From the IMG/VR virus record IMGVR_UViG_642791630_000009: a stretch of 49,569 bases of DNA; one strand, 5' to 3'. The stretch is from a virus (taxonomy: Duplodnaviria; Heunggongvirae; Uroviricota; Caudoviricetes). Below, piece by piece: positions 12,001 through 15,000 of this stretch. Each line of letters starts with the position of its first letter. The first letter of the stretch is position 1. A program made the position numbers.

Positions 12001-15000
12001 TTATATGCTGAAATGAATAATGCTATTCCAGAGTGCAGCAGAGAAAGTCTCCTGATGATTGAGCTCTGGAAATTGTACAATAGAAAAATTACTGTATTTT
12101 TCTGTCAAAATATTTCTCAAAACAGATTCCGCTTTGATGGCTTCAGGATATAAAGATGCGGAGTAATCAAGGCTAAGATTTCCGTTAAGCAAGCATATAC
12201 TTTTAGTGTGCTTTGATTCTGATATATCATCTTTAATTATCTTGATGATTCTTTCATTCTGCCATAGAAGTGATGGTGCAGATATATAATAATAGTTAAA
12301 GCATGAATTATTTTTTAAGCAATCAAGCACAAAAATAGCACCTAGCGAGTGCCCCCATATACCGATTCTGGAACTGTTCGGAGCAATAGTACTAACCCAT
12401 GGCATGATCTGAGTTAGTAATAATTCTCGGAAAGACTGGCTTCCTCCACCAGTAAAGTAGATCCATGCTGGTTTAGAGTTATCAACAATAGCATTTTCAC
12501 CATCAGGAGTATAATCGTAAGCACGGCGATGAATGCTAAGGTTATTCCAAGATTCATAACCAAGTGTAACTAACACTGGTGGATTGGGTAGTGCATCAAT
12601 AACAGGCAGAATATCAGAAATGTAATTGTTGGCACTATTCCCATCAAGTATATAAAGAGTTGCATTATTTTTTTTAATGTTTTTTGGAGTAAAAATACAT
12701 ATTTTATATTTGGTGTCATGGTTAATTGAGTTAAATATGCGTGTTTGACAATGAATGTCCATATGTTTAGTCATGCGTTCTCCCCATGAGCATTAAAGGA
12801 TGCTTAAGATATGCTATGTCACTGATAAAAAATTTGTTGTGTGTGTTTAGTTATTTTATCTACCTCCATTATGATTTAAGACTGATATATGTTATCAGCA
12901 AAGGTACATCGTTATTATTTTACCTGTCAATACATTTGATATTGATTATCGTTTACATCGCTTGCTTAGGAAATTGAAGGCAGGTAACTATCATGTCAAT
13001 GAACTAACCCACAGTCTAACGTACTTCTTTCCCCAATCACCAACAACCAAATTCCTGTTATCACCACTGGGATTTTGGCGCAACTTCATGGTGCAGAGGT
13101 AAATAGCATCAAGCAAAATCTCTTTTTCCGTTGTTGTCCTTATGGGACGTCTGTCTTTCTGACCGATTTCATATTGGCGAGGTAATGGGAAGTTAAGTAG
13201 AATAGCTGCGGGTGCTTGAGGCTATCTGCCTCGGGCATGAACACCAACGGCAGATAGAGAAAAGCCCCAGTTAACATTACGCGTCCTGCAAGACGCCTAA
13301 CATTAATCTGAGGCTCAATCTATGAACGGCAAATCTAGGTTAGCCTCTTACGTGCCGAAAGGCAAGGAGAAGCAGGCTATGAAGCAGCAAAAGGCGATGT
13401 TAATCGCCCTGATCGTCATCTGTTTAACCGTCATAGTGACGGCACTGGTAACGAGGAAAGACCTCTGCGAGGTACGAGTCCGAACCGGCCAGACGGAGGT
13501 CGCTGTCTTCACAGCTTACGAACCTGAGGAGTAAGAGACCTGGCGGGGGAGAAATCCCTCGCCACCTCTGATGAATCAGGCATCCTCAACGCACCCGCAC
13601 TTAACCCGCTTCGGCGGGTTTTGTTTTTTCCTGGCATTCTGGTTTACAATTCGCACGCCAGCCTGAACAACTGGCACCTGCTGCGCCAGCAGAGACAACC
13701 GATGGCGCACGATACCAAATTATACAATTCTGATGATTCTGCCGTCTTTGCCAGCAGGCGCGGACGGTGTTTTCACGCATTCAAATCTGACTGGTACCAG
13801 CATCCCCCATGCACTGAAGAACAGGCCGAATGGCTCATTCAGTGTTACCGCAGGCGCGGATGCGAGGTTAAAAAAGCCCTTAGCCTCGACTACCGTCACT
13901 GGATAATCTCCGTCAGGCTCCCTTACTCCGAACGGCCACCGCGTCCGTCCCGCACATTCCAGCAACGGATCTGGAGGTAATGTGCGGGTATTACTTCGAC
14001 CTGTTCTGGTACCGGAACTCGGTCTGGTTATCGTTAAGCCAGGCCGTGAATCAATGTCAGCATTCCATAACGGCAGAATACTGGTGGAGCCGGAACCAAA
14101 AAGCATGCGAGCTCTGCCGTCCGGGGTTGTACCTGCCGTTCACCAGCCGCTGGCGGAAGATAAATCACTACTGCCATTTTTCAGCGATGAGCGGGTGATC
14201 CGTGCTGCGGGTGGCGCTGGTGCACTGTCTGACTGGTTATTACGTCACGTGAAATCCTGCCAGTGGCCTCATGGTGATTATCATCACAGCGAAACTGTCA
14301 TACATCGTTACGGTACCGGCGCGATGGTGTTGTGCTGGCACTGCGACAACCAGCTGCGCGACCAGACATCCGAATCACTTGAGCAACTTGCTCAACAGAA
14401 TCTGGCCGCCTGGATGATTGACGTCATCCGCCACGCAATGAATGGCATACAGGAACGGGAATTATCGCTGGCTGAATTATCCTGGTGGGCAGTCTGCAAT
14501 CAGGTGGTGGACGCATTACCTGAGGCAGTATCGCGTCGTTCTCTGGGATTACCGGCGGAAAAAATCCGCTCCGTATACCGTGAAAGCGACATCATACCGG
14601 GAGAACAGACCGCCACCAGCATACTGAAGCAGCGCACAAAAAATATTGCGCTACCGCCTCACACCCACCAGCAACAGAACCCACCACAGGAAAAGACGGT
14701 GGTCAGCATTGCCGTTGATCCGGAGTCTCCGAAATCCTTCATGAAACGACCTAAACGTCGCCGCTGGGTAAATGAGAAATACACACGCTGGGTAAAGACA
14801 CAGCCGTGTGCGTGTTGTGGTAAGCCAGCGGACGATCCTCATCATCTGATTGGTCATGGTCAGGGTGGAATGGGAACAAAATCCCACGATATTTTCACGC
14901 TACCGCTGTGTCGGGAGCATCACAACGAGCTTCATGCGGATCCGCTGGCGTTCGAAGAAAAGCATGGTTCCCAGGTTGATTTAATTTTTCGTTTTCTTGA

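Follow-up and report, generated by a model that had tools for sequence, protein, structure and literature searches.

A leaderless IroE-clade esterase, putatively acting on siderophores, as a moron of the Escherichia coli O157:H7 prophage Sp4

The stretch of DNA considered here, the IMG/VR virus record IMGVR_UViG_642791630_000009 (49,569 nucleotides, in the following called the window in its entirety), is prophage Sp4 of Escherichia coli O157:H7 and carries, between its replication genes and hok, a gene whose product is assigned below to the IroE clade of siderophore esterases. This gene, ECs1077 in strain Sakai, lies on the minus strand, is read from an ATG at 12774 down to position 12001 and encodes a protein of 257 residues, which is labelled 'hypothetical protein' as NP_309104.1 and 'alpha/beta hydrolase' in RefSeq (WP_000160654.1), while its PHROGs match, phrog_8493, is listed with unknown function. 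A Shine-Dalgarno sequence read from the DNA (GGGGAG, 12780–12785, minus strand) precedes the ATG by 5 nt and is kept in all alleles, and the open reading frame (ORF) cannot extend further upstream because an in-frame TAA stands 21 nt before the start codon. All flanking genes are encoded on the plus strand, opposite to the esterase. To its left lie an O-like gene (8473–9675), a DnaC-like gene (9682–10428), a DUF1627 gene (10450–11220) and, as the immediate neighbour, a DUF977 gene (11221–11649), and to its right hok (13379–13534), followed by DUF968, RusA, and Q. In an Rfam scan, a match to the sok antitoxin RNA family (13210–13384; 105.6 bits) was obtained that overlaps the mok/hok leader.

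Between the DUF977 gene and hok/sok, homology breakpoints and base composition delimit an AT-rich cargo island of about 1.5 kb (11628–13131) in which the esterase gene is embedded. The guanine-cytosine (GC) content is 0.28–0.41 over about 11600–13100 as compared to 0.50–0.57 on either side, with a mean of about 0.32 in the island versus 0.52, and the esterase gene itself has a GC content of 34 %, which falls to 28 % when third codon positions alone are counted. No second gene was found in the island, an Rfam scan returned no family inside it and sok alone next to it, and repeats marking the island edges were looked for and not found. Homology with related prophages stops at 11612–11627 and resumes at 13132–13191, and the content of this slot varies: it is empty in strain BAP1 (L002), holds QueH in several strains and, elsewhere, several small proteins including DUF7167 and small unknowns, while in L007 (2079–2888) it contains a 269-residue minus-strand protein that was tested as a diverged copy of the esterase and rejected as unrelated. 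The equivalents of 11628–13131 span 2116–2781 in L004 and 1990–3104 in L006. The esterase is one of several alternative cargoes at this recombination-prone junction, and it bears the marks of a moron, namely deviant GC content, opposite strand, variable presence at a fixed site, and a candidate promoter and terminator (both weak predictions). Much of this had been described in an earlier note, made from the sequence alone, as an AT-rich moron between the replication module and hok, transcribed against its neighbours and encoding an alpha/beta-hydrolase with a GHSLG nucleophile elbow and no evident signal peptide. Each of these descriptions holds up.

Fold and family of the protein can be assigned to the IroE clade of siderophore esterases with near certainty. 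In a phmmer search of PDB sequences, the best match was IroE (2gzr, E 5e-26, esterase residues 8–253), in an alignment that spans the 257-residue protein end to end; next came Bacillus BES, Pseudomonas PfeE, fungal siderophore esterases, and the IroE-like 3gff. Against the family profile A1 the esterase scored 312 bits. An AlphaFold2 model built from a 78-sequence alignment reached a mean predicted local distance difference test score (pLDDT) of 84.9 and a predicted template modelling score (pTM) of 0.88, and the best 30 Foldseek matches of this model in the PDB are siderophore esterases only, with template modelling (TM) scores of 0.70–0.81 (IroE: E 3e-18, TM 0.76–0.81). Fes, with 380–390 residues, first appears at rank 32, and a search of a viral structure library returned generic alpha/beta-hydrolases only, with TM around 0.5. 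The protein consists of one alpha/beta-hydrolase domain, which is of the IroE type and has no lid domain at its N-terminus, and a Pfam search found no Enterochelin_N domain (PF11806) in the 257 residues. The family identification rests on these PDB sequence, family profile, and fold searches because the match to Pfam family PF00756 is sub-threshold.

The catalytic residues were mapped by alignment, with IroE residue numbers taken from the HMMER alignment to 2gzr_A (chain index + 40); all codons given here are on the minus strand. The GHSLG elbow comprises residues 141–145 (12340–12354) and was read directly as GGG CAC TCG CTA GGT. Its Ser143 (12346–12348), aligned with IroE Ser189, is invariant in 78 of 78 family members, and His240 (12055–12057) aligns with the catalytic His287 of IroE, Arg84 (12523–12525; chain index 90) with Arg130, and Asp44 of an LDGN motif (12643–12645; chain index 50) with Asp90. 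All four residues are invariant in both an 18- and a 78-sequence alignment. In IroE, Arg130 is reportedly an unusual oxyanion stabiliser that is anchored by Asp90. A glutamate after strand 7 ('GGxE') is found in 69 of 75 family members; ECs1077 has Ser201 at this position, and IroE lacks an acid there too. In PMC10515146, which cites Larsen 2006, IroE is described as employing a Ser189/His287 dyad instead of a triad. The proposal that a missing catalytic triad would speak against an esterase is thus unsuitable for this clade, since IroE itself is a Ser-His dyad enzyme and ECs1077 shows the same pattern. ECs1077 is likely to be catalytically competent. A separate observation concerns residue 199 (12178–12180), right after strand 7, which is the canonical acid position of alpha/beta-hydrolases and has no conserved acid in the IroE clade: it is Asn in the O157-type allele, Asp in alleles B and C of the loci compared, and Glu in the database variant P0003.

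What ECs1077 lacks, compared with its family, is the N-terminal export segment. In its closest relatives (290–330 residues), a signal peptide or anchor comes first and a conserved 'PLGxNIADxGS' segment next, which together amount to 40–55 extra residues; a hydrophobic N-terminal stretch is present in 58 of 75 homologues, and the median N-terminal extension is 48 residues. ECs1077 begins just past 'PLGxNIADxGS', about 46 residues into IroE and at the start of the soluble domain, and neither a hydrophobic stretch nor a twin-arginine motif or lipobox occurs within its first 50 residues. According to PMC7403778, IroE resides in the periplasm, and Fes and IroD reside in the cytoplasm. Because ECs1077 is an IroE catalytic domain without an export device, we infer a cytoplasmic action, and the protein is probably cytoplasmic rather than periplasmic.

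Relatives of the protein are either close or remote. A word-indexed search of 5.8 billion proteins returned the E. coli copies and one relative of 31 % identity only, and when 1.84 billion cluster representatives were scanned exhaustively with HMMER, 998 relatives were obtained, none of them between 33 % and 87 % identity. The nearest relatives with readable gene context are genuine siderophore genes: one from Pantoea sp. A4 (P0170, 30 % identity) lies within an iroN-iroE-iroC-iroB-iroD cluster, and the other (P0020, 31 %) adjoins two TonB-dependent receptors, entE/entB/entA-like genes, and a FecCD-type ABC importer. Plasmid carriage of ECs1077 was considered and rejected, as the lone 100 % match in a tblastn search of plasmids is a 287-kb EDL933 record and all others show at most 32 % identity, the best true plasmid matches being IroE-like genes of Duffyella and Pantoea (31–32 %) and the iroE of ColV plasmids (29 %). 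Among 50,697 GenBank phage records searched by tblastn, the esterase occurred in no isolated-phage record; four distant matches (below 30 % identity) lie in bacterial-looking or iroE-containing records.

Within E. coli, the gene was found in 471 of 5426 complete genomes, mainly of O157:H7 but also of O145, O103, and untyped strains, and the segment DUF977-esterase-hok is contiguous in 469 records. Copies are at least 99 % identical in 458 of the 471 carriers and 90–95 % identical in the remaining 13, and at least 1000 contigs encode the identical protein. When 2.9 million IMG/VR viral contigs were scanned with a pattern, 19 loci encoding a relative were obtained, all of the ECs1077 lineage (89–100 % identity) and all with the gene placed between hok and DUF977, including those in which DUF977 is just 70 % identical. 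The possibility raised in the earlier note, that the ORF might be disrupted in most homologous prophages, is not borne out, as 467 of the 471 carrier genomes retain 80 % or more of the gene and 18 of the 19 viral copies are intact. Disrupted or rearranged copies are rare; L029 (IMGVR_UViG_2695420643_000015, 6001–6770) has a frameshifted esterase with its first stop at codon 67, and strain 9234 (NZ_CP017446.1) has an IS1203 insertion within the DUF977-esterase-hok segment. Three alleles could be distinguished, which differ in 21–27 residues and in 57 (A–B) to 73 (A–C) nucleotides; pairwise ratios of nonsynonymous to synonymous substitution rates (dN/dS) are 0.16–0.25, with the key residues all kept. 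The esterase is a maintained protein-coding gene under purifying selection and not a relic, and the match to IroE, the dN/dS values, and the identical protein on so many contigs show that it is more than a chance reading frame.

Predicted transcription signals surround the gene on its own strand. A candidate sigma-70 promoter (12868–12895, minus strand) consists of a −35 element ATAACA (12895–12890), a 16-nt spacer, and a −10 element CATAAT (12873–12868), and lies 94–121 nt upstream of the ATG. Overlapping its −35 element is a 17-bp palindrome, CTGATAACATATATCAG (12882–12898), which agrees with the Fur 7-1-7 core TGATAATnATTATCA at 11 of 14 positions and is identical in the three alleles. A second Fur-box-like site, TGATATTGATTATCG (12937–12951), agrees at 12 of 14 positions of the 7-1-7 core and 15 of 19 of the 19-bp consensus, and one of its bases differs in allele C. 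When the 357-bp upstream region was shuffled with preservation of dinucleotides, 12/14 was reached in 0.6 % of shuffles, with P 0.07 for 11/14, and just three sites of at least 12/14 exist in the whole window; a scan with the 19-bp consensus gave 15/19 at 12938, which 2.8 % of island shuffles also reach. The block 12947–12854 is near-invariant among alleles that are about 9 % apart in the coding region. On the other side of the gene, 55–120 nt past its stop codon, a hairpin followed by a U-rich tract (11881–11946, minus strand; inverted repeat I2) is a candidate terminator; its folding energy is −23.6 kcal/mol (z −3.5), and none of 200 shuffles was as stable.

From the gene, fold, family, selection, slot, and distribution described above, we infer a substrate, a compartment, a mode of regulation, and a host benefit as follows. 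At a probability of roughly 55 %, ECs1077 is a solitary, leaderless, highly diverged siderophore ester hydrolase of the IroE clade that forms a self-contained moron of the lambdoid prophage Sp4 and its relatives. Ser143 of the GHSLG elbow would be the nucleophile and His240 the general base, with no third acidic residue, as in IroE, while Arg84, positioned by Asp44, would stabilise the oxyanion. The enzyme may cleave the serine-ester backbone of a catecholate trilactone siderophore, either host-made enterobactin or a related imported one, and a siderophore as its substrate is, from the family evidence, somewhat favoured. In spite of its resemblance in build to periplasmic IroE, it would do so in the cytoplasm of the lysogen, the compartment shared with Fes, IroD, and BesA. 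The lysogen could thereby gain additional capacity either for releasing iron from ferric catecholates or for converting the cyclic siderophore into linear dihydroxybenzoylserine (DHBS) oligomers, with expression driven autonomously from an opposite-strand promoter and ended at the gene's own terminator, possibly under repression by Fur when iron is plentiful. Such an activity would probably affect the lysogen's handling of enterobactin-bound iron. The more elaborate version, in which a leaderless IroE alters the siderophore economy of O157:H7 from the cytoplasm by converting cyclic enterobactin into linear DHBS and is switched by Fur upon iron starvation, is distinctly improbable. As to the kind of cargo, for which virulence, metabolic, and anti-defence functions had been suggested, iron and siderophore metabolism is the best supported, and the designation as a generic esterase proved too broad, since the protein belongs specifically to the IroE clade.

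Several observations weigh against a siderophore hydrolase. PF00756, proposed in the earlier note for an HMM search, points to the right family, but the match reaches 17 bits (E 0.005) where the gathering score is 22; a search of NCBIfam gave zero matches, and no characterised enzyme is more than 33 % identical to ECs1077. Four invariant or near-invariant family positions adjoining the active site are altered (G146A, S166A, W170L, and G241Q), in every ECs1077 allele; these changes could signify a different substrate and are the main ground for doubting that the substrate is unchanged. No siderophore uptake or synthesis genes are linked to ECs1077, and in O55:H7 TB182A (L003, 2352–3311) the same slot is taken by a defence-type gene of the SIR2 family, whose PADLOC and Pfam SIR2 matches are weak. 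E. coli already possesses the cytoplasmic esterase Fes, so that the benefit of ECs1077 is questionable. The evidence for transcriptional control adds further doubt: the candidate promoter scores 9/12 in a consensus scan, which is at background frequency, the Fur-site evidence is statistically modest, and the sole perfect 7-1-7 match in the window, TGATAATTATTATCA (25807–25821), lies inside a lambda-type cos region, just upstream of GGGCGGCGACCTCGCGGGTTTTCGC (context 25640–25880), showing that Fur-like palindromes arise for unrelated reasons. Because the single perfect Fur-core match sits in the cos region, Fur control of ECs1077 is not claimed, and it appears doubtful. Finally, nothing in the literature searched dealt with ECs1077 or with a siderophore esterase carried by a phage; no earlier publication of a prophage-borne, diverged, leaderless IroE-family esterase was found, while the kind of enzyme is known.

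Among the alternatives, the one that survives best, albeit as an unlikely explanation, is that the protein is still an active Ser-His esterase with the IroE fold but now acts on a non-siderophore ester or lactone, for example, another small-molecule ester of the gut or the infected cell, in which case siderophore ancestry says little about the present job. The four altered positions, kept in all alleles, would fit such a change, as would the wide gap in the 1.84 billion representatives that separates ECs1077 from relatives of at most 33 % identity, the loss of the export segment, and the absence of siderophore gene neighbours; the GC content of 34 % points to a foreign origin. On the other hand, every clade member returned by the searches that is characterised in structure or biochemistry hydrolyses siderophore esters, the full catalytic set of Asp, Arg, Ser, and His is retained, and the upstream Fur-like sites fit an iron-related role.

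Another scenario would place the enzyme outside the cell: set free when Sp4 or a co-resident prophage lyses part of the population, it would act on siderophores in the gut lumen, whether as a public good or to interfere with competitors. Its domain architecture is indeed that of the periplasmic IroE catalytic domain without a lid, and IroE has a preference for siderophores free of iron, such as occur outside the cell or during export (PMC7403778). The prophage moreover encodes a second, unrelated esterase of the SASA/NanS-p type (18848–20698), and other esterases encoded by prophages of enterohaemorrhagic E. coli (EHEC) have been proposed to play a comparable part. Transcription of ECs1077 opposite to both the early and the late operons, from an apparent promoter of its own, makes co-expression with lysis not obvious, and this scenario is very improbable.

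The slot itself brings to mind phage warfare, in the sense of a defence, exclusion, or anti-defence cargo that would shield the lysogen or the phage from other phages, for example, by changing the siderophore or receptor status of the cell or by destroying a signalling ester. In support, the DUF977-hok junction is a swap site that in relatives holds the SIR2-family protein, QueH, small unknowns, or the 269-residue protein. QueH, however, is a metabolic cargo, so the slot is not defence-specific, and the L007 cargo is unrelated to the esterase. A PADLOC search of the esterase gave no match at E ≤ 0.01, the island contains no partner gene, and the homology is specifically to siderophore esterases, which together render a role in phage warfare highly improbable. 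Least probable of all is a silent, H-NS-silenced passenger without current function that hitch-hikes in the successful clone O157:H7, for although the near-identity of 458 of 471 copies reflects clonal spread, AT-rich DNA is typically silenced, the Pfam match is sub-threshold, and L029 is frameshifted, this explanation is contradicted by purifying selection between alleles 57–73 nt apart with their catalytic residues kept (dN/dS 0.16–0.25), by intact copies in prophage backbones whose DUF977 gene is just 70 % identical, and by an upstream control region conserved above background.

Beyond the esterase locus, the prophage displays a number of further features. A second low-GC island (GC 0.33–0.40, about 15650–17000) lies just downstream of the Q antiterminator gene and contains ECs1085 (15922–16746, plus strand), an apparent moron for an intramembrane protease of the CPBP family (CAAX/Abi-like). 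The second esterase gene mentioned above is ECs1088 (plus strand), which encodes a NanS-p-like, SASA-family carbohydrate esterase of 616 residues and follows an ileZ-argN-argO tRNA cluster (18109–18358). At 20874–22087 (plus strand) and 22292–22606 (minus strand), an IS629/IS1203 element adjoins pchA (ECs1091), which encodes a PerC-family activator of the LEE (enterocyte effacement locus), and the lysis genes at about 23072–25300 are on the minus strand, so that this segment is apparently inverted relative to the usual late-operon order. Directly after hok, a sub-threshold Rfam match resembles isrK (13543–13624; 27 bits, E 0.003). The early region carries a RelE/ParE-family toxin gene (6146–6433, minus strand) and a YdaT-family toxin gene (7418–7843, plus strand), which brings the number of toxin-type modules in the prophage to three, counting hok/sok.

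An anonymous ORF that O157:H7 and some other Shiga-toxin-producing lineages keep nearly unchanged is herewith connected to a testable iron-acquisition hypothesis in an important pathogen. IroE-like esterases on viral contigs were limited to the ECs1077 lineage in the collections searched, and if the enzyme is active, it would represent an unusual lysogenic-conversion function. Should a cytoplasmic cleavage of enterobactin prove true, ECs1077 would be the first described phage-encoded conversion gene for siderophore processing, situated in a slot that otherwise carries defence genes, and possible effects would include protection from oxidative stress, altered capture by lipocalin, and altered FepA traffic affecting competing phages or colicins. 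If it is inactive or redundant with Fes, it is an ordinary moron. The DUF977-hok junction of lambdoid prophages, at which cargo is exchanged, is of use when mining for accessory and defence genes.

Among known systems, IroE, the salmochelin/enterobactin trilactone hydrolase of the iroBCDEN cluster (PDB 2gzr/2gzs), is closest to ECs1077 in both sequence and fold. Both are lidless single domains that lack a catalytic acid, and Asp90, Arg130, Ser189, and His287 of IroE are all conserved. The two proteins are 27–29 % identical, and they differ in that ECs1077 lacks the 40–46-residue N-terminal anchor or signal of IroE together with 'PLGxNIADxGS'; IroE is moreover encoded in the iro cluster, whereas ECs1077 stands alone in a prophage cargo island. 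Around the active site, the family motifs GHSxGG, SPS, SLWW, and HG are replaced in ECs1077 by GHSLGA, APS, SLLW, and HQ. PfeE, the periplasmic ferric-enterobactin esterase of P. aeruginosa (6gi0–6gi5), shares the fold (TM 0.75–0.79, E 7e-18) and the nucleophile elbow, with a sequence match over residues 38–177 at 21–22 % identity (E 1.5e-11). In contrast to ECs1077, however, PfeE is exported, and PfeE-like proteins possess the 'GGxE' motif.

BesA/BES, the ferri-bacillibactin esterase of Bacillus (2qm0), resembles ECs1077 in being leaderless and matches it in sequence (E 9e-13, about 21 % identity) and structure (Foldseek E 3e-17), although it is chromosomal and not phage-borne. In Firmicutes, BesA acts inside the cell as part of the Fur-regulated siderophore regulon. 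Because it is leaderless and intracellular, a cytoplasmic version of this fold is evidently viable. Fes and IroD share with ECs1077 the presumed compartment, the reaction class, and a related catalytic domain (Foldseek E about 1e-10, TMq 0.67), but they are proteins of about 400 residues with an N-terminal Enterochelin_N lid, in contrast to 257 residues with neither lid nor acid. Fes employs a Ser-His-Glu triad (PMC10515146). The NanS-p type esterases of EHEC prophages (SASA/SGNH, acting on 9-O-acetyl-sialate), finally, resemble ECs1077 as esterase cargo of O157:H7 lambdoid prophages, from which they are set apart by an unrelated fold and substrate and by their location in the late region on the plus strand.

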